Shown: one piece after another, positions 3,079 through 30,601 of the stretch
Layout of the letters: each line of letters starts with the position of its first letter
How positions within the stretch are numbered: the stretch's first letter is position 1
Assembly (NCBI RefSeq): GCF_051859625.1
Contig: NZ_JBHYFH010000003.1
Coordinates: 310,853 to 374,852 of the forward strand
Direction of reading: 5' to 3'
Length of the DNA stretch: 64,000 nucleotides
Source of the DNA: Oceanicaulis sp.
GTDB taxonomy: Bacteria; Pseudomonadota; Alphaproteobacteria; Caulobacterales; Maricaulaceae
The notes under the pieces: generated by a model
What the model was told of the DNA's origin: nothing
The model's database searches: none
What the model saw: the letters and a program-made list of their open reading frames with translations, nothing else
Position numbers and translations under genes: made by a program

Positions 3079-4188
3079 CTAGCGCCAGCAGGTCAGGCCG
3101 TTTTCTGGAACGTCCATCCCGGCGGCATGGCCAGCGGCCCAGGCGATCGCCATGGGGGAGACAAGCTCCTCCCCGTCTTCGCGATTGGTCAAGACGATCA
3201 CGGACTGGCCCGTCGTCATGTCCCTCACATAGGCCGTGCCGGAATAACCGGCATGGCTGGTGATCTGGCGACCGTCCACGTCATGGCTCCACCAGCCGCG
3301 CGCATACCCCCAGCGTTCGCAGCTTTCGCCCGCATCAAACGCCCGCTGGATTTCGGCGGCCTGCGCAATCACGTCCGGATCGAGCACCTGCGGGTCATCC
3401 AGCTCCGCTTCCCAGATCATCAGATCGTTGAGTGATGAGGTGACGCCAAAATGAGACGTCAGGCCGAACTGCCAGACCCGGCGGTTTCTCGCCAGCTCAC
3501 CGTCATAAACACCATAGCCCTCCGCGCGATGGGACACGATGGCGGACTGGTCGAGCATGCGTGTCTGGTCCATGCCCAGCGGCGTCCAGAACCGGTCCCG
3601 CAAGGCCGTCTCGAAGGACCGCCCCGTCACCTCCTCGATCACCAGACCGAGCAGGAAATAGCCCTGATCGGAATAGCGCCAGTCCGTACCCGGTTCTGAT
3701 TGAAGCGGGGTCTCGATCGCTGAGGCCAGCATCTGATCGGTGGAATAGGCGATCTGGAACTGTCCGTTCGGCATGTCTTCAAACCGATGCGCCAGCCCGG
3801 CCATGTGGCTGAGCAGCTGGTTGACAGTGATCGCCGACCAATCCTCTGGCGTATCTTCGATGTAGAAAGAGAGCGGACCATCCAGTGACAGGCGCCCCTC
3901 TTCAGCCAGGCTGAGCACCATCAGGGCGGTCATATGCTTGGTGAGAGAGGCGAGCTCGAACACGGTGGCTGCGCTGGCGGGAGCGGAATGCTCGAGACTT
4001 GCAAAACCATACTCGCCCACATGAACCGGCTCGCCGTGCTCGAGAACGGCCACCACGACGCCGGGGAAGCGTCCCTCGTCCATGATCGGCGAGACCGCGG
4101 CGTCCACCGCCTCAAGGCGTGGCGGCGTGTCCTGCGCGGCAGCCGGCATGGCCGTGAGCGCTAGCATCATCAGGCTTGTTCTGAGCAT
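3079..4188 (-). CDS. Secreted serine hydrolase, beta-lactamase class C/PBP-like
   Basis: Signal peptide, SxxK (ASLTK), YSD (WRYSDQGY), HAG triad region. Confidence 0.85.
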   Translation of the reverse strand: MLRTSLMMLALTAMPAAAQDTPPRLEAVDAAVSPIMDEGRFPGVVVAVLEHGEPVHVGEYGFASLEHSAPASAATVFELASLTKHMTALMVLSLAEEGRLSLDGPLSFYIEDTPEDWSAITVNQLLSHMAGLAHRFEDMPNGQFQIAYSTDQMLASAIETPLQSEPGTDWRYSDQGYFLLGLVIEEVTGRSFETALRDRFWTPLGMDQTRMLDQSAIVSHRAEGYGVYDGELARNRRVWQFGLTSHFGVTSSLNDLMIWEAELDDPQVLDPDVIAQAAEIQRAFDAGESCERWGYARGWWSHDVDGRQITSHAGYSGTAYVRDMTTGQSVIVLTNREDGEELVSPMAIAWAAGHAAGMDVPENGLTCWR

Positions 4189-4283
4189 GGATCCCCCTCT
4201 TAGCTCTCAGCCTATCCTGGCGAGGCCGCACGCCCTAATGACGAACCCTCAAGGTGAAAGGGTATGACGTCGGCCGCCCTCGC

Positions 4284-12231: not shown

Positions 12232-13794
12232 ATGATGGAGCTGACACGGCGGCAAACGCTGGCCACGGGGTTGGCGGGGCTGACAGGATTGACGGTCGCC
12301 GCCTGTTCTGGGCGGACAGGTGCGCCAGACAATCTGTTGCGCGTCGCCATCGAGACCGAGCCTGACAGCCTGGACCCGTTGCGCGGTCAGTTCGCCTCCG
12401 CCGCGCTTTTATACAAGCAGCTCCATGCGCCGCTGACCGAATATGCGCCCTCTGGCGGGCTGGCGCCGGGACTGGCTTTGACGTGGCGCAGCGAAGACGC
12501 CCGCGTCTGGCGCTTCACTCTGCGCCCGGACCTGGTGTGGTCGGACGGCGCGCCCCTGACCGCCGATGACGTGGTCTGGACGGCCCGGCGCGCCGTGGAC
12601 CCCACCACAGGTTTTGCGGATCTGGGCGATTTTTTCGCCGTGATCGGCGCGCGCGAAGCGCTGGCGGGAGAGCGTGATCCCGACACCATCGCCGTCAGCG
12701 CCCCTGACCCGCGCACCGTCGTATTCGAGCTGGATCGCCCGGTGGGTAATTTCCCGGTGCTGATGCGCGAGTTCTACCCCCTGCCCCGCTATCAGGTGGA
12801 AGCGTATCCCGATGACTGGATCCGCCCCGAACACTGGGTTTCGGCGGGACCTTACGTGCTGGACCGCTACGAAGCGCTGTCTTTGCAGCTGGTGAAAAAC
12901 CCGCGCTTTCCCGCCGCTGACAGCGTCAAGGTCAACGCCATCAGCGTGGATGTGATTGATACGCCCTCCGCCCGCGCGCGTCGGTTCCGGGCCGGCGATT
13001 ATGATCTGGCCGAGCGTCCGCCCACCGATCAGATCGGCTTTCTGCGTGAGACTGTGGGCGATCGCCTGCACGCCTATCCCGCCCCGATCCTGACCTATCT
13101 CAAGCTCAATTGCGCCCAGCCCCATCTGAGCGATCCACGGGTGCGGCGGGCGCTGAGCCTGGGGCTCGACCGGGCGTTCCTGAACACGCATTTCTTCAAT
13201 GACGAGGCGCAATCCTCAGACACCGTGATCCCGCGTCAGGGCGACGCCTACACGCCGCCGCGCCCTGACCCTGAGCGCGCACGCGCGCTGCTGGCCGAGG
13301 CGGGCTTCACCGCCCAATCGCCTTTGCGGCTGACCGTGCGCGCGACCGCCGGCGACCGAGACCGGCTGGCCATCGCCCTGCTTGATGACTGGTCGCAAAT
13401 CGGGGTGGAGGGCGAGCTGCTCGCCAGCTATCCCCTCGATCTTTATCAGGCGGTGGACGCCGGGGATTTCGATGTGGCGCTGGCCAGGTTTGATCGCGGG
13501 CTGAAATCGGACCCCGACTTCATGCTGCAGCCCTTTTCCCGCAACGGCTTCGCTGACAACACAAATTGGTCCGGCGCGGCGCGGGAGAATTTCGACGCGC
13601 TGATGGCGGACGCCTACGCCATGATCGACCCGGCGGAGCGGGCGGCGCAGTTCCGACGCGCGGAAGCGATCTTTCTGGAGGCGATGCCCAATATCCCGCT
13701 CCTGCATGAACGCGCCTATTGGCTGGTCTCGGACCGCACCCGCACCCCTGACGACATCCAGCCCCAGCTCTGGCGGGATCTGGCGCTCCGCTAG
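12232..13794 (+). CDS. OppA/DppA-type peptide ABC substrate-binding lipoprotein (Tat signal)
   Basis: TRRQTLATG...VAAC signal, WSDGAPLTADDVVW, DPRVRRALSLGLDR. Confidence 0.85.
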   Translation: MMELTRRQTLATGLAGLTGLTVAACSGRTGAPDNLLRVAIETEPDSLDPLRGQFASAALLYKQLHAPLTEYAPSGGLAPGLALTWRSEDARVWRFTLRPDLVWSDGAPLTADDVVWTARRAVDPTTGFADLGDFFAVIGAREALAGERDPDTIAVSAPDPRTVVFELDRPVGNFPVLMREFYPLPRYQVEAYPDDWIRPEHWVSAGPYVLDRYEALSLQLVKNPRFPAADSVKVNAISVDVIDTPSARARRFRAGDYDLAERPPTDQIGFLRETVGDRLHAYPAPILTYLKLNCAQPHLSDPRVRRALSLGLDRAFLNTHFFNDEAQSSDTVIPRQGDAYTPPRPDPERARALLAEAGFTAQSPLRLTVRATAGDRDRLAIALLDDWSQIGVEGELLASYPLDLYQAVDAGDFDVALARFDRGLKSDPDFMLQPFSRNGFADNTNWSGAARENFDALMADAYAMIDPAERAAQFRRAEAIFLEAMPNIPLLHERAYWLVSDRTRTPDDIQPQLWRDLALR

Positions 13795-17483: not shown

Positions 17484-20400
17484 ATGCCCAAGCGCACAGA
17501 CATCCAGTCCATCCTGATCATCGGCGCCGGTCCCATCGTGATCGGCCAGGCCTGCGAGTTTGACTATTCGGGCGTTCAGGCGGTGAAAGCGCTCAAGGAA
17601 GAGGGCTACCGGGTGATCCTGGTGAACTCCAACCCCGCCACGATCATGACCGACCCCGATCTGGCCGACGCCACCTATATCGAGCCGATCACGCCTGAAA
17701 TGGTCGCCAAGGTGATCGAGAAGGAACGCCCCGACGCGCTTCTGCCCACCATGGGCGGACAGACCGCGCTCAATTGCGCGCTGGAACTCGACAAGCGCGG
17801 CGTGCTGGAGCTGTTCAATGTGGAGATGATCGGCGCCAAGGCCGATGTCATCGACAAGGCGGAAAACCGCGAGCGCTTCCGCGTGGCGATGGACTCCATC
17901 GGCCTTGAAAGCCCGATCTCGCGAACCGTGCACACGATGGCGGAAGCCGAGATCGTGCTTGAGGAATTGGGCCTGCCGGCCGTGATCCGCCCCTCTTTCA
18001 CCATGGGCGGCACCGGCGGCGGCATCGCCTACAATGTTGAAGAGTTCCGCGAGATCGTCACCTCGGGCCTCTATCACTCCCCGGTCACAGAAGTGCTGAT
18101 CGAGGAAAGCGTTCTGGGCTGGAAAGAATACGAGATGGAAGTGGTTCGCGACAAAGCGGACAACTGCATCATCATCTGCTCGATCGAAAACATCGATCCT
18201 ATGGGCGTTCACACCGGCGATTCCATCACCGTCGCGCCCGCGCTGACCCTGACCGACAAGGAATACCAGCGCATGCGTTCGGCCTCGATCGCCGTGCTGC
18301 GCGAGATCGGGGTGGAGACCGGCGGCTCGAACGTGCAGTTCGCCGTGAACCCCAAGGATGGCCGCATGGTGGTCATCGAGATGAACCCGCGCGTGTCGCG
18401 CTCTTCCGCGCTGGCGTCCAAGGCCACCGGCTTTCCCATCGCCAAAGTCGCGGCCAAGCTGGCGGTCGGCTACACGCTCGATGAGATCGACAACGACATC
18501 ACCGGCGGCGCGACCCCGGCGAGCTTTGAGCCCACCATCGATTATGTGGTCACCAAGATCCCGCGCTTCGCCTTTGAGAAATATCCCGGCGCGAAAGCCA
18601 CGCTGACCACCTCCATGAAGTCGGTGGGCGAAGCCATGTCCATGGGCCGCAGCTTTGCCGAAAGCGTGCAAAAAGCCCTGCGCAGCCTGGAAACCGGCCT
18701 GTCGGGCTTTGACGAGATCGAGATCGACGGTCTGGACCAGGCCGAAGACGAGGCCGCGCGTCATCAATCCGTGCTGGCGGCGCTGTCGCAACCCACGCCG
18801 GATCGCCTGTTAGTGATCGCCCAGGCCTTCCGCGAAGGACTGACCGTGGAGCGCATCCAGAGCGCGTGCCTTTATGAGCCGTGGTTCCTGCGTCAGATCG
18901 AAGTGATCGTGCACGCCGAAGAACAGGTGCGCATGCTGGGCCTGCCGCAAAATGGCGACGAGCTCTTAAAGCTCAAATCCATGGGCTTCTCCGACAAGCG
19001 TCTGGCAACCCTCGCCAAGGTCGAGGAGACCGAGGTGAAGGCGCTGCGCAAGACCTTCGGCGTACGCCCCGTCTACAAGCGCGTGGACACCTGTGCGGCC
19101 GAATTCGCTTCGCCCACCCCCTATATGTATTCGACCTATGAGCGCGGCGGCGAATGCGAAAGCGCGCCGACGGATCGCAAAAAGGCGATCATTCTGGGTG
19201 GCGGGCCGAACCGGATCGGCCAGGGCATCGAGTTTGACTATTGCTGCTGTCACGCGGCCTTCGCCTTCGCCGAGATGGGCATTGAATCCATCATGGTGAA
19301 CTGCAACCCCGAGACCGTCTCCACCGATTACGACACCGCGGACCGGCTGTATTTCGAACCTCTGACCGCCGAAGACGTGCTGGAGCTGATCGAGACCGAA
19401 ATGCAATCGGGCGAGCTGCTGGGCGTGGTGGTCCAGTATGGCGGCCAGACCCCGCTGAAACTGGCGCCGGAGCTGGAAGCGGCGGGCGTGCCGATCCTCG
19501 GCACCGCGCCGGACGCCATCGACCTTGCTGAAGACCGCGAACGCTTCAAGGCGCTGCTGGATGATCTGAACCTGAAACAGCCGCCCAACGCCATCGCCCA
19601 TGATGAAGCTGAAGCGCGCGTCATGGCCGAGGAGCTGGGCTTCCCGCTGGTGCTGCGCCCGTCGCACGTGCTCGGCGGTCGCGGCATGGAGATCGTGCGC
19701 GATGTCGAGAGCTTCAGCCGCTATATCCGCGAAGCCGTGCATGTGTCGGGCAAGGCGCCGCTGCTGCTCGACCGTTATCTGTCAGACGCGTCCGAAGTGG
19801 ATGTGGACGCGGTCTGCGACGGCGAGGATGTCTGGATTTCCGGCATCATGGAGCATATCGAGGAAGCGGGCGTGCACTCGGGCGATAGCGCCTGTTCCTT
19901 GCCGCCTTACTCGCTCTCTGACCAGACCGTCAGCGAATTGCGCCGCCAGACGAAAGCCCTCGCGAAAGCCATCGGCGTCAAGGGCCTGATGAACGTGCAG
20001 TACGCGGTGAAGGACAACATGGTCTACCTCATCGAGGTGAACCCGCGCGCCAGCCGCACCGTGCCGTTTGTGGCGAAAACCATCGGCGCGCCGGTGGCCA
20101 AGATCGCCGCCAAGGTGATGGCCGGCGCGAAATTGTCAGAGTTCGAGACCCCGGCCATGCCAAGCCGCCATATCGCGGTGAAGGAGGCGGTGATGCCGTT
20201 CTCGCGCTTCCCCGGCGTCGACCCGATTCTCGGCCCGGAAATGCGCTCCACCGGCGAGGTCATGGGCATTGATGAACGCTTTGAAGCCGCCTTCGCAAAA
20301 GCCGAGCTGGGCGCGGGCGTAAACCTGCCGAAATCGGGCACGGTGTTCGTCTCGCTGAAAGAATCAGACAAGCCGATGATGATTGAATCCTGTCATCGTC

Positions 20401-24311: not shown

Positions 24312-25289
24312 ATGGCCGAGACCCGTCACGCCAAGCTTGTCATCATCGGTTCCGGTTCCGCCGGCTATACCGCCGCGATCTACGCCGCTCGCGCCATGCT
24401 GGAGCCTCTGCTGATCGCAGGCATGCAGCCGGGCGGTCAGCTGACCATCACCACCGATGTCGAGAACTATCCCGGCTTCGCCGACCCCATCCAGGGTCCG
24501 TGGCTGATGGAGCAGATGAAGGCGCAGGCGGAAAACATGGGCACGGCCTTCGCTGATGACCTGATCGTCGACGCCGATCTCAGCGCCCGCCCGTTCAAGC
24601 TGACCGGCGATAGCGGCGTGGTCTACACCGCCGACGCCGTGGTCATCGCCACCGGCGCCAGCGCCAAATGGCTCGGCCTTGAAAGCGAGCAGGCGTATCA
24701 GGGCTATGGCGTCTCGGCCTGCGCCACATGCGACGGCTTCTTTTATCGCGACAAGGAAGTCTTCGTGGTCGGCGGCGGCAACACCGCTGTGGAAGAAGCG
24801 CTGTTTCTGACCAATTTCGCTTCGAAAGTGACGCTGGTGCACCGCCGCGATTCCCTGCGCGCGGAAAAGATCATGCAGGAACGCCTGTTCAACCACCCCA
24901 AGGTGGAAGTGGTCTGGGACAGCCAGCTTGAAGAGGTCACCGGCGAAGACAAGCCCGTCAAATCCGTCACCGGCGTCCGGCTGAAAAACGTCAAGACCGG
25001 CGAGATCGAGGACCGCCCCGCTGACGGCGTCTTCATCGCCATCGGCCACGCCCCGGCGACCGAGTTGTTCACCGGTCAGCTGGAAACCAAGGAAGGCGGC
25101 TATCTGGTCACCGCGCCCGATTCCACCTCCACAACGATCCCCGGCGTCTTCGCCGCAGGCGACGTGACCGACGACAAATACCGCCAGGCCATCACGGCGG
25201 CGGGCATGGGCTGCATGGCGGCGCTGGAAGCGGAACGCTATCTCGCCGCCCTCGACGCGGCGCGCGACAAGGCGTCTGACGCAGCCTAG
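24312..25289 (+). CDS. trxB: Thioredoxin reductase
   Basis: [46 protein letters not shown]. Confidence 0.97.
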
Positions 25290-25523
25290 CCACCCCGGTT
25301 TCAATTTGCGGGGCGCGGCTTCGATGATGCACGAGCGTGTGTGAGATCGACGACAGCGCCCCGCGCCCTGCCCATCCTGCACGGATGATTTTGGCCGCCT
25401 TGCAATGTGCAGGCGGCCTTTCTGGTGGGCCGGGAAAACCGCGACATGACACGAATTTCACTTGAAATGCGTGCGGTCACAACCACTTTGAATTTTGCAT
25501 TTTACACACGGGGGCGTGAGATC

Positions 25524-26732
25524 ATGAGCAAAGCGTGGAAACAAATGATTGTTGCAATCATGGCTTGGTTTCTAAGCAGTGCAGCCATGGCGAGCGCCCA
25601 GAATCAGCCCCCCTCATTTGAAACATTCGCGGCCTATACTGCTGATAGCGAAACAAGGATCGATTACCAGGTCTGGAGTGAAATGCTCGGAGCCATCACA
25701 TTTGATGTGGGCATGAGCGACCGGTACGTTCCAAGAGGCCGGATTATTGAAACAGGCAGCCGGATTACCGGGCAAAGCACCTCTCGTTATCGCACTGAGA
25801 GCAATCGAGTCATTTTTCACTTGCTCGAAGACTTTCACAAAGAAGCGATCAGTTCATATCGACAGGATCTGGAAGCCCTGCCAGACAACATGCCGCTTTC
25901 AAATCTGGGGCGGAACGAACAACTCGCCTACTGGATCAACTTGCACAACGTCATCGTCATTGACGAAATCGCCAAGCGCTATCCCTTACGCAATGTAGAC
26001 AGAATTCGACTTGATGACGGCGGCTCCCTGTACGAAGGCCATGTCACCACCATTCAGGGCGTCCCGCTCAGCCTGAACGATATCCGGTTAAATATCGTGG
26101 CCCGGTATTGGGATAACCCTGTTGTCTTGTACGGGTTCTTCTCCGGCGCAGTCAGCAGCCCCAGTCTTCAGGCGCGCGCCTATACCGGTACGAATGTGAT
26201 GCGTTTGCTGAACCGTAACGCCGAGGAATATGTGAACGCGCTGCGTGGGGTGGAAAACACCGCGCCGCCCTTGCGCGTGTCCCCGATGTATTTTGAAGCC
26301 CAACACATGTTCCCGAACTGGCCGCAGGACCTGATCGCCCATCTGGACAGCTTCGCCGATGATGATGTCGCTGAACTTCTTGATGATGCAGACCGGGTCG
26401 TCAGAAACCAATATGATTGGAATGTTGCCGACTTGACCAACGGGGCAGGCCCTTGCGGCGGCGGCGTTCGCAGAAATGTTCAAGAAGTGGCTGGCACATC
26501 CAGCGGTTCAGCAGGCGCGGCCGCCTCTCTGGGCGGATGCAATCCCGTCCCGCCCGTCACGCGTGACTTCATCGTGGATATTCAAGAACGCCGTTTGCGC
26601 TTGCTGCGCAGCGGTCAATTGGGACGCGTCATCGTGACGGATATCGCAACAGAGGATTCAGATCACTCTCGAAGCGGCGGCGCTCAGGGCCAACTTGTTG
26701 ACAGGGACGACAATCAACCCGAAGGGCGCTAA
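25524..26732 (+). CDS. Secreted DUF547-domain protein
   Basis: Signal peptide; QLAYWINLHNVIVI, LSLNDIR..IV; lower GC than neighbours. Confidence 0.75.
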   Translation: MSKAWKQMIVAIMAWFLSSAAMASAQNQPPSFETFAAYTADSETRIDYQVWSEMLGAITFDVGMSDRYVPRGRIIETGSRITGQSTSRYRTESNRVIFHLLEDFHKEAISSYRQDLEALPDNMPLSNLGRNEQLAYWINLHNVIVIDEIAKRYPLRNVDRIRLDDGGSLYEGHVTTIQGVPLSLNDIRLNIVARYWDNPVVLYGFFSGAVSSPSLQARAYTGTNVMRLLNRNAEEYVNALRGVENTAPPLRVSPMYFEAQHMFPNWPQDLIAHLDSFADDDVAELLDDADRVVRNQYDWNVADLTNGAGPCGGGVRRNVQEVAGTSSGSAGAAASLGGCNPVPPVTRDFIVDIQERRLRLLRSGQLGRVIVTDIATEDSDHSRSGGAQGQLVDRDDNQPEGR

Positions 26733-28767: not shown

Positions 28768-29661
28768 ATGGATTGGGACAAGCTCAAAACCTTCCACGCA
28801 GCCGCCGAAGTGGGATCGCTGACCGGCGCTGCGGAAGCTCTGGCGCTGTCGCAATCGGCCGTCAGCCGCCAGATTTCGGCGCTTGAAGGCGAGCTGGGGG
28901 TGAAGCTGTTTCATCGCCATACGCGCGGCCTGTTGCTGACCGAGCCGGGACGCGTTCTGTTTGAAGCCAGCAAGGATGTGGCGGGCAAGATCGCGCTCGC
29001 CGAAGCCAATGTGCTCGACTGCCGCGATGAACCCAGCGGATTGCTGCGGGTCACCGCGCCGACCGCCATGGGCGCCACCTGGCTGGCGCCGCGACTGGCG
29101 CGCTTTAATGCGCTCTATCCGCAAATTCGGGTGCGCTTGCTGCTGGTCGATCATGAACTCGATATTGCAAACCTCGAGGCGGATGTGGCGCTGCGCCCCT
29201 GGGCGGCGACCCAGAACGACTTGATCCAGCGCAAGCTGATGGTTGTGGACCAGCATTTGTATGCGTCAGAGGCCTATCTGCAGCGCAAGGGCGCGGTGGA
29301 GAGCTTTGACGATCTCGACCGCCATGACTTCGTCGGATACGGGCCGCGCAATCTCGCGCCGATCCCCAATCTGAACTGGCATCTCGATCTTGGCCGGGAG
29401 CCCGGTGAAAAACCGCGCGAAGCGCTGGCCGAGGCCAGCACCATTCACGGCATGATGCGGCTGGCCGAAGCCGGTCTGGGTCTGGTCGGCCTGCCCGATT
29501 ATGTGGCGCGTGAAAATGACAGGCTCAAACGCCTGTTTGACGCCATAGAAGGACCGCCGTTCGAGGTCTATCTGATTTTCCCTGAGGAATTGCGCGCGTC
29601 GCGCCGGGTGAAAGCCTTCCGGGATTTCATCATGGAAGAAGTCAAACTCTGGCGCGAGTAG
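28768..29661 (+). CDS. LysR-type regulator resembling LsrB/VtlR
   Basis: MDWDKLKTFHAAAEVGS...LSQSAVSRQISALE...KLFHRHTRGLLLTE; downstream of trxB as for rhizobial lsrB/vtlR. Confidence 0.85.
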   Translation: MDWDKLKTFHAAAEVGSLTGAAEALALSQSAVSRQISALEGELGVKLFHRHTRGLLLTEPGRVLFEASKDVAGKIALAEANVLDCRDEPSGLLRVTAPTAMGATWLAPRLARFNALYPQIRVRLLLVDHELDIANLEADVALRPWAATQNDLIQRKLMVVDQHLYASEAYLQRKGAVESFDDLDRHDFVGYGPRNLAPIPNLNWHLDLGREPGEKPREALAEASTIHGMMRLAEAGLGLVGLPDYVARENDRLKRLFDAIEGPPFEVYLIFPEELRASRRVKAFRDFIMEEVKLWRE

Positions 29662-29776
29662 CGATTTTGTCCCGTTAGAGGACGCTTTTACGCCAATTGC
29701 GACACGATTGCGGCGGGGGCCTGACACAATTGTTGCAGCCCCGCAAAAACGCATAACGGCTATGGCGAACGGGCTG

Positions 29777-29805
29777 TTGTCTCGCAAGCGGGTGAGAGGC
29801 ATATA
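29777..29805 (+). promoter_or_regulatory. Sigma70-type promoter for sRNA candidate 1
   Basis: TTGTCT-17 bp-CATATA. Confidence 0.55.
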
Positions 29806-29812
29806 CCCCCCG

Positions 29813-29918
29813 ACAGCAGGTGTTCATCTGCTTTCCCCTTTGAGCGCATACCGTCTCCTCCCCGATTAGGTATGCTAAACTGAGCCGGTCACCGCAGATG
29901 CGGGGCCGGCTCTTTTCT
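29813..29918 (+). ncRNA. sRNA candidate 1 (AbcR-like architecture)
   Basis: Hairpin AGCAG/CTGCT, single-stranded TTCCCCTTT, stem GCATACC/GGTATGC with CTCCTCCCC loop, terminator GAGCCGG...CCGGCTC-TTTT; no ORF. Confidence 0.65.
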
Positions 29919-29933
29919 TATTATATAAGGCTT

Positions 29934-30027
29934 AGTCAGCCGCCATGAACGTCATGGACGTGCGCACCCTCCCCCTCGAGCGCACGTACAGAAAACCCCG
30001 CCAGCGTCATCGCTGGCGGGGTTTTTC
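29934..30027 (+). ncRNA. sRNA candidate 2 (tandem)
   Basis: TATATA at 29922-29927, hairpin CCATGA/TCATGG, 8-bp stem ACGTGCGC/GCGCACGT with CCCTCCCCCT loop, terminator hairpin 29992-30026. Confidence 0.5.
29992..30027. terminator. Bidirectional terminator after dps
   Basis: AAAACCCCGCCAGCG-TCAT-CGCTGGCGGGGTTTTT. Confidence 0.85.
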
Positions 30028-30049
30028 ATGGTCGGCGGAGCTTGAAGTC

Positions 30050-30517
30050 CTAGCCCAGCGTCGCGCGCAGCATCCAGGCTGTTTTCTCATGCAGGGTGAT
30101 GCGCGGGGCGATCAGATCGGACGTCGCCTCATCGCCATGCTCTTCAGCCAGCTTCAGAGCGTCCCGCGCGGTGCGCACGACCTGTTCATGACCGGCCACG
30201 AGATTGGCGACCATGGTGTTGGCGTCCGGCGTGGAGCTGTCGTGCTTGATCTTCGCGGACGCGCCCATCTCTTCGTATGAGATCGGGGCGAGCACGCCCA
30301 GCGCCCGGATGCGTTCGGCGATGTCGTCAGTGGCCGTCCACAATTCTGTGTATTGCTCTTCAAACATCGTGTGCAGATCGTGAAACCGCGGTCCGGTGAC
30401 GTTCCAGTGATAGGCGTGCGTCTTGAAATAGAGCGCATACGTGTCCGCCAGGAGCGCCGTGACCGCCTTGGCCATGGTTTCGCGCTGCTCTTTGCTCAGG
30501 CCCATATTGATGTCCAT
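30050..30517 (-). CDS. dps: Dps family DNA-protecting ferritin-like protein
   Basis: KTHAYHWNVTGPRFHDLHTMFEEQY...DDIAERIRALG, HEKTAWML; AAAGGAGG RBS. Confidence 0.95.
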   Translation of the reverse strand: MDINMGLSKEQRETMAKAVTALLADTYALYFKTHAYHWNVTGPRFHDLHTMFEEQYTELWTATDDIAERIRALGVLAPISYEEMGASAKIKHDSSTPDANTMVANLVAGHEQVVRTARDALKLAEEHGDEATSDLIAPRITLHEKTAWMLRATLG

Positions 30518-30601
30518 TGCCGCCTCCTTTGCGGTGAATTCCATACCCACAATGTGGGGATGAACGCGCGCGAACGCCAACTGAGTTTTTGATAGAAACC
30601 T

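Follow-up and report, generated by a model that had tools for sequence, protein, structure and literature searches.

The LysR-type regulator LsrB/VtlR and the small RNA AbcR1 form a circuit that controls how rhizobia, Agrobacterium and Brucella take up nutrients, resist stress and interact with their hosts; this circuit has been treated as a feature of the Rhizobiales. AbcR RNAs associate with Hfq and repress mRNAs of ABC transporters and others by base pairing at the ribosome-binding site. In Sinorhizobium meliloti, Agrobacterium tumefaciens and Brucella abortus, trxB (thioredoxin reductase) and lsrB are followed on the same strand by the small RNA; the trxB-vtlR arrangement and the VtlR box, GCAT-N3-TG-N3-T, have been described (PMC7486931), and the box lies at -61 to -49 in abcR1 promoters (PMC8844928). 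The experimentally defined seeds of S. meliloti AbcR1/2 are two anti-Shine-Dalgarno (aSD) sequences, aSD1 CUCCUCCC in the 5' hairpin loop and aSD2 UUCCCCUC, or UUCCCCU(C/U), which is single-stranded between the stem-loops SL1 and SL2 (PMC8844928). NfeR1 of S. meliloti (alpha-r14, RF02344) is likewise activated by LsrB, for which it has a box of the T-N11-A type between -72 and -57; its anti-SD loops carry CCUCCUCCC, and its targets are mRNAs of ABC transporters (PMC10746234). By taxonomy, the nearest studied relatives are SisA-D of Caulobacter crescentus (alpha-r8), in which a weak hairpin is followed by an unpaired UUUCCUCCCU (PMC12559287); CCNA_R0014, now SisA, was formerly called an AbcR1 homologue (PMC6237742). 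Here we describe a locus in a stretch of 64,000 nt from Oceanicaulis sp. (Maricaulaceae; contig NZ_JBHYFH010000003.1, positions 310,853 to 374,852), referred to as the window, for which an earlier note had proposed an LsrB/VtlR-like LysR gene followed by an AbcR-like small RNA (sRNA). Comparative sequence analysis confirmed a predicted sRNA gene (unit 1) behind the LysR gene that had been missed by Rfam and by the genome annotation. Unit 1 is probably an independently transcribed gene for a trans-acting regulatory RNA, the Maricaulaceae/Hyphomonadaceae counterpart of rhizobial AbcR1, and would be regulated by the adjacent LsrB/VtlR orthologue.

The small RNA unit behind the LysR gene

Unit 1 starts 150 nt past the LysR stop codon, within a gap of 388 nt between the LysR gene and the convergent dps gene that holds all elements named in the earlier note (Table 1). 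Its size and its three hairpins were found as claimed there, and the 111-nt stretch folds with a minimum free energy of -46.7 kcal/mol, compared to -31.1 +/- 3.4 kcal/mol for shuffles (z -4.6), with 0 of 200 shuffles as good. The seed-bearing loop was also recovered: the loop of SL2 includes CUCCUCCC, and the loop of SL1 is without a seed. Of the UUCCCC (29833-29838) that had been described as single-stranded, this holds for the CCC, while the first three bases (UUC) are able to pair at the base of SL1.

An alignment of the 16 first homologues with MAFFT misaligned SL1 and the terminators, and therefore a small covariance model (R1) was built from five sequences, to which the sequences were realigned. 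R1 recovered all loci bearing the core GCAUAC..UCUCCUCCCCGA..GUAUGC, which was found downstream of the LysR gene in Marinicauda, Woodsholea, three Hyphobacterium, Euryhalocaulis, Litorimonas, Hellea, Robiginitomaculum and metagenome-assembled genomes, and 1.7 kb further on from this gene in Maricaulis. Altogether, the RNA was detected by covariance model in more than 40 loci from Maricaulaceae, Hyphomonadaceae and metagenomes. In a model-guided alignment of 29 sequences, 91.9% of the cells in SL2 and the terminator were paired vs 32-43% for slid partners, and double-sided changes occurred at 14 pairs vs 4.9 +/- 1.4 in shuffles, counts that are biased towards the structure of R1 as the alignment was fitted to it. 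Independent of this alignment is the finding that the SL2 stem is wholly replaced in Maricaulis (GUGCGCCC/GGGCGCGC) with the loop kept. SL1 was present in 28/28 homologues with unrelated sequences, and the window differs by 2 nt in SL1 from the close relative L081. The structure is thus kept in relatives, on which the earlier note had made its candidate depend, and with this conservation and covariation unit 1 is more than chance.

The note had further called the unit free of open reading frames (ORFs). A mechanically called 53-codon ORF with a TTG start (29708-29869) does overlap it, and a small protein encoded there would be the alternative product of this region. We regard such a protein as hardly conceivable, as the ORF starts upstream of the conserved promoter, the conservation pattern is one of stems and loops, and the indels among homologues (unit lengths of 107-139 nt) are not multiples of three, which rules this ORF out.

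When metagenome contigs were scanned with the RNA core alone, 105 stretches were obtained, 21 of which were true homologues by R1. A LysR orthologue was located directly upstream on the same strand in 14 of these and not in six, with one contig being too short. The six unlinked copies keep the upstream box (e.g. CGCAAATTTGCATAGCGGCTATGG) and the -10 element at unchanged distances, as predicted by regulation in trans; the box therefore belongs to the promoter of the RNA itself and is no relic of the 3' flank of the LysR gene. Downstream of the sRNA, dps was found in 11/16 of the first metagenome homologues and also in the close relative L180. The location between convergent genes and the two-way nature of the last terminator would also fit hairpins that merely represent the 3' untranslated region and terminators of lysR and dps, with no independent RNA gene. 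This explanation is very unlikely, because the loop sequence is kept while the stems covary, the -10 element and the operator are conserved at fixed distances, and homologues exist without LysR upstream and without dps downstream (L160, L132, L161, L098).

Regulator, predicted operator and promoter

The LysR protein of 297 aa shows the architecture of a LysR-type transcriptional regulator (LTTR; PF00126, E 2.8e-23; PF03466, E 2e-32). Its best match in the PDB, over residues 1-295, was 9HH1 (E 2.2e-71), the cryo-EM structure of A. tumefaciens LsrB (Atu2186 = VtlR; PMC11975290), and the next LTTR structure followed at E 7e-28. Identity to proteins named VtlR by NCBI was 40-41%; homologues with 60-97% identity were named Oceanicaulis, Marinicauda, Glycocaulis, Alkalicaulis, Hyphobacterium and Maricaulis. 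No LsrB/VtlR-specific model was found in a search of the protein against NCBIfam, where the best model was YafC, far under its cutoff. From the margin of 9HH1 over other LTTRs and the synteny with trxB, the protein is by sequence an LsrB/VtlR orthologue, so that the LsrB/VtlR-like nature claimed for it was borne out. The linkage to trxB, which the note cites for Sinorhizobium, Agrobacterium and Brucella, is found here too, although three genes intervene.

A scan of species genomes for orthologues of this LysR protein led to 80 loci with identities of 45% or more, among them Bradyrhizobium, Azospirillum, Thalassospira and Kiloniella, and trxB was found upstream on the same strand in 69 of them, mostly directly adjacent. 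In the window, the three intervening genes encode a DUF547 protein, an ABC ATPase and an FtsX/MacB-type permease according to Pfam. In L081 and L180, which are close relatives, trxB is followed by the ABC ATPase, FtsX permease and LysR genes. The DUF547 gene (25407-26732), located between trxB and the ABC ATPase gene, is present in the window only and absent from these two relatives.

The redox cysteines Cys144 and Cys273 of A. tumefaciens LsrB are not present in the window protein, which has V140 and I270 at the aligned positions and C85 as its sole cysteine. Signal sensing through a Cys144-Cys273 thiol switch, as proposed for LsrB of A. tumefaciens, is thus excluded here. Among 12 aligned orthologues, Cys273 was confined to three Rhizobiaceae proteins and is therefore a trait of that branch and not of the orthologue group. 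The absence of these cysteines speaks for a derived, lineage-specific origin of redox sensing by LsrB.

Upstream of unit 1, both the TTGTCT-N17-CATATA promoter and the GCATA-N5-TATG dyad placed near 29750-29765 by the earlier note could be verified, the latter as GCATA (29751-29755), N5 and TATGG (29761-29765). The GCAT-N7-ATG begins 61 nt before the transcription start predicted from the -10 element (29812/29813), and the box GCAT-AAC-GG-CTA-T at -61 to -49 of this start has one mismatch to the published one (TG to GG). The hexamers TTGTCT/CATATA fit the alphaproteobacterial promoter consensus CTTGAC-N17-CTATAT quoted in PMC8844928. In AbcR loci verified by Rfam, the abcR1 promoters consist of TGYG-N6-GCATGGCTGNCATGC, where GCAT lies at -61 and the -10 element is CCATATC. 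They share the GCAT-N7-ATG dyad with the window, and all homologues as well as the abcR1 promoters have CATAT(A/C) or CTATAT as -10 element at equal distance. Of the 80 loci, 32 contained GCAT-N7-ATG in the 400 nt that follow the LysR gene, vs 0.04 expected per locus. The predicted promoter of unit 1 hence agrees with that of rhizobial abcR1 in its type of sequence and its position.

Table 1. Predicted features of the locus, with positions in the window.
Feature	Position	Strand	Basis
trxB (thioredoxin reductase)	24312-25247	+	tblastn with TrxB of L016 and L029: 70% identity, E 1e-137
LysR-type regulator gene, 297 aa	28768-29661	+	ORF; HTH_1 and LysR_substrate domains
LsrB/VtlR-type operator (predicted), CGCA-N5-GCATAACGGCTATGG	29742-29765	+	sequence; layout like Rhizobiaceae abcR1 promoters
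Core promoter (predicted): TTGTCT 29777-29782, N17, CATATA 29800-29805	29777-29805	+	sequence
Small RNA unit 1, about 105 nt	29812-29919	+	fold, covariance model matches
SL1 hairpin	29812-29835	+	fold
Seed UUCCCCUU, single-stranded between SL1 and SL2	29833-29840	+	sequence and fold
SL2, 7-bp stem GCAUACC 29846-29852 / GGUAUGC 29869-29875	29846-29875	+	sequence and fold
SL2 loop, 16 nt, with seed CUCCUCCCC	seed at 29855-29863	+	sequence
Terminator 1: GC-rich hairpin 29882-29912, then UUUUCUU	29882-29919	+	sequence
Unit 2	29934-30027	+	hairpin and two-way terminator; fold z -7.5
dps (ferritin-like DNA-protection protein), convergent	30050-30580	-	Pfam Ferritin and NCBIfam Dps matches

Relation to AbcR, proposed mode of action and candidate targets

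Unit 1 shares with AbcR1/AbcR2 the gene order (trxB, the lsrB-type gene and then the sRNA on the same strand), the GCAT-N7-ATG about 61 nt before the start together with a CATAT -10 element, a length of about 105-115 nt with three hairpins and an intrinsic terminator, and possibly a tandem second copy. Both seed sequences are present as well, UUCCCCU unpaired in the stretch from SL1 to SL2 and CUCCUCCC within a loop; the match to the AbcR seeds is 8/8 for CUCCUCCC and 7/8 for UUCCCCUU, and aSD2 has the same position as in AbcR, whereas aSD1 is found in the loop of SL2 and not of SL1. Further differences are the lack of a GGAGG/CCUUC SL2, the three genes inserted between trxB and the LysR gene, the lack of Cys144 and Cys273 compared to the rhizobial LsrB, and the lack of a match to the alpha-r15 model (RF02345).

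The earlier note had named as a check a search with Infernal against Rfam for alpha-r15/AbcR, suhB/alpha-r8 and cuckoo, and this led to no family match. Neither at the gathering thresholds in the whole window nor at E<=10 in 29600-30100 were ar15, ar14, suhB/alpha-r8 or cuckoo detected, and in the latter region there were chance-level matches alone (ncr1175, sodF sRNA and anti-hemB), driven by the second terminator. As controls, loci of the Rhizobium/Agrobacterium, Sinorhizobium and Hoeflea type (L088, L090 and L091) were retrieved with the LsrB sequence from the 9HH1 alignment. RF02345, with a gathering threshold of 40 bits, detected two, two and four tandem AbcR copies behind vtlR in these loci (eight copies, 75-117 bits); the model works, yet finds nothing in the window. 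The four tandem ar15 copies behind vtlR in the Hoeflea locus (L091, 3046-3918) each have their own GCATGGCTGGCATGC box.

The classification as AbcR-like is supported by position, promoter, size, modular layout and seeds, and without an RF02345 match and with the loop seed in SL2, unit 1 is an AbcR-like RNA but not a detectable member of alpha-r15. In the literature searched, no such RNA has been placed behind an lsrB orthologue outside the Rhizobiales. The same position, operator and seeds are thus found with another sequence family in free-living marine Maricaulaceae/Hyphomonadaceae.

Another C-rich family (alpha-r14/NfeR1, alpha-r8/MmgR/SisA-D or cuckoo/CcsR) could have come to lie behind lsrB by coincidence or convergence, which we consider improbable. 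The SL2 loop UCUCCUCCCC resembles the alpha-r14 motif (PMC10746234), NfeR1 also presents anti-SD loops and has LsrB as its activator, and the SisA-D/MmgR RNAs (suhB, RF00519), which are Hfq-type sRNAs with a terminator, have a C/U-rich single-stranded anti-SD 10-mer after a weak hairpin (PMC12559287). Weak matches below threshold were seen with ar14 in a Hyphobacterium homologue (24.5 bits, E 1.7) and with suhB in a Caulobacteraceae locus (24.8 bits, E 0.69); nothing reached threshold in 20 related loci, or in nine loci searched at E<=5. Against such an origin speaks that none of these models, including RF02344 and RF00519, matches the window even at E<=10. Moreover, alpha-r14 requires the same motif in three loops, and NfeR1 is encoded elsewhere than behind lsrB, whereas unit 1 has one motif loop; the canonical alpha-r8 copy is typically FGase-linked, has no reported LsrB box and has UUUCCUCCCU as its core, whereas unit 1 has LysR and dps as neighbours and its main seed in a loop. 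Three features match AbcR1 specifically, namely the location after lsrB, a box at -61, and UUCCCCU left unpaired between the first two stem-loops.

For unit 1 as the counterpart of AbcR1, the following mode of action is proposed. The adjacent LsrB/VtlR orthologue would bind the GCAT-N7-ATG box, which has its centre about 55 nt before the start, and would activate the sigma-70-type promoter. The transcript would end at the intrinsic terminator and expose two C/U-rich anti-Shine-Dalgarno seeds, UUCCCCUU in the SL1-SL2 linker and CUCCUCCCC in the SL2 loop. These may pair with the ribosome-binding sites (RBS) of target mRNAs, most likely together with Hfq, which would block translation and probably speed up decay; genes for solute uptake would be the likeliest targets. 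The orthology of the regulator, the conserved structure and seeds of the RNA and the conserved box with its position are shown by the sequences, whereas we infer transcription, the exact RNA ends, activation by LysR, Hfq dependence, the targets and the signal sensed.

A target scan of the window, which was limited to this stretch and based on crude gene calls, was mostly uninformative and led to one plausible candidate. The RBS GGGGAGG of the gene for an SBP_bac_5 solute-binding protein (12232-13794, region from 12218) pairs with the seed of the SL2 loop in a predicted duplex of -20.7 kcal/mol, vs a mean of -9.6 (sd 3.7) for 730 start regions, and this duplex was one of the best predicted. This gene, which belongs to the class typical for AbcR, may be followed as a weak lead. 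In addition, GAUCGGGGUGGAGAC at 18302-18321, inside the gene for the large subunit of carbamoyl-phosphate synthase, is almost fully complementary to the SL2 loop (-26.8 kcal/mol). This site appeared as a partial match of the covariance model on the opposite strand and may be chance or a target site within a coding sequence.

Several observations weigh against the reading of unit 1 as an LsrB/VtlR-regulated AbcR1 counterpart, in addition to the failure of the Rfam models, the bias of the covariation counts and the narrow target scan. In place of the central TG of the published VtlR box, the window has GG, and the right half-site is degenerate in most Maricaulaceae homologues, because of which a strict GCAT-N7-ATG expression matched L018 alone among the Maricaulaceae loci L001-L020. 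A generic scan of the E. coli type called neither the promoter of unit 1 nor terminator 1. The claim of a U-tailed terminator stands for the hairpin and the U-rich tail, but the U-tract is broken by a C. Finally, no RNA was found behind the LysR gene in the close relatives L001 and L082, nor in L085-L087, and it is therefore dispensable or mobile. In L085-L087 (3395-3565), where the LysR protein is 82% identical, a TATGC-N7-GCATA dyad directly follows the gene, and an AT-rich stretch without significant structure (z -0.5) replaces the sRNA. The inference that the same regulatory module exists in this lineage is supported by the orthology of the regulator, the position of the box, the seeds and the conserved structure, and is qualified by the missing alpha-r15 match, the absent redox cysteines and the loop seed in SL2.

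Unit 2 and the wider alphaproteobacterial picture

Behind unit 1 follows unit 2 (Table 1), in which an 8-bp hairpin (ACGUGCGC/GCGCACGU, 29958-29987) shows CCCUCCCCCU in its loop and is followed by a strong bidirectional terminator (29991-30027), which unit 2 has in common with dps. L081, L106 and L157, all of them close relatives, carry this hairpin unchanged, with varying flanks and a small 5' hairpin that is not kept. Inspection of the unit 2 sequence revealed neither an LsrB box nor a convincing -35 element, and there was a weak match (E 0.031) to a second covariance model (R2), built from 27 members of the family. Unit 2 may be a tandem second RNA, as is AbcR2, or the 3' part of a transcript of about 215 nt that reads through terminator 1.

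In the latter case, terminator 1 would be leaky and units 1 and 2 would form a single, larger functional RNA (29812-30027) with three anti-SD sites. Besides the missing promoter elements of unit 2 and the interrupted U-tract of terminator 1, this is favoured by the modular fold of the whole 219-nt stretch (z -8.8) and by the homologues from Hyphobacterium and Maricaulis, in which a third hairpin showing CUCCUCCCC right after SL2 has a poor U-tract and the true terminator lies downstream beside dps. On the other hand, terminator 1 is a strong, GC-rich hairpin of 13 bp, conserved counterparts of which end in U7-U9 tails in relatives such as Woodsholea and Marinicauda, and rhizobial lsrB loci as a rule carry two to four tandem independent ar15 copies. 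A joint transcript is possible but less likely than not.

With R2, matches at E<0.1 were obtained in 41 distant loci, all on the + strand and 85-620 nt after the LysR stop, with all but one within 350 nt. As R2 reaches the AbcR2 of Sinorhizobium only at E 0.057, a common descent of this family and alpha-r15 is no more than plausible. Together with the RNA family of the window, the weaker relatives at the same spot in the 41 loci suggest that the circuit is class-wide and much older. One step further, the sRNA behind lsrB may be one ancient locus of most Alphaproteobacteria, with AbcR as one branch, in which seeds and hairpins were reshuffled by lineage and the loop seed moved to SL2 in the case described here; as most LsrB orthologues lack the rhizobial cysteine switch, the circuit would answer a signal other than thiol oxidation in most of the class. 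We see the chances for and against this scenario as evenly balanced. The covariance model could seed a new RNA family, and with one regulator, one box and one sRNA the locus offers a simple test case in marine oligotrophs.

AbcR-like RNAs were also seen by inspection in Bradyrhizobium and other Hyphomicrobiales, e.g. GUUCCCCUCUGGAAGG in L069. In the Bradyrhizobium-type loci (L053, L046, L069 and others, at about 3960-4230) they lie behind lsrB with a perfect GCATG-N5-CATGC box. None of these was reported by Rfam ar15 at the gathering threshold or at E<=5, so that the Rfam family looks too narrow even within the Hyphomicrobiales. In loci of the Rhodospirillales type (L015, 4045-4144; L079, L077 and L063) another sRNA, which scored 33 bits against Rfam SorX (gathering threshold 46.6), is found behind the LysR gene and consists of a hairpin ACGUCUCCCAGACGU, followed by GAAGCCUCCCUGUU and a terminator.

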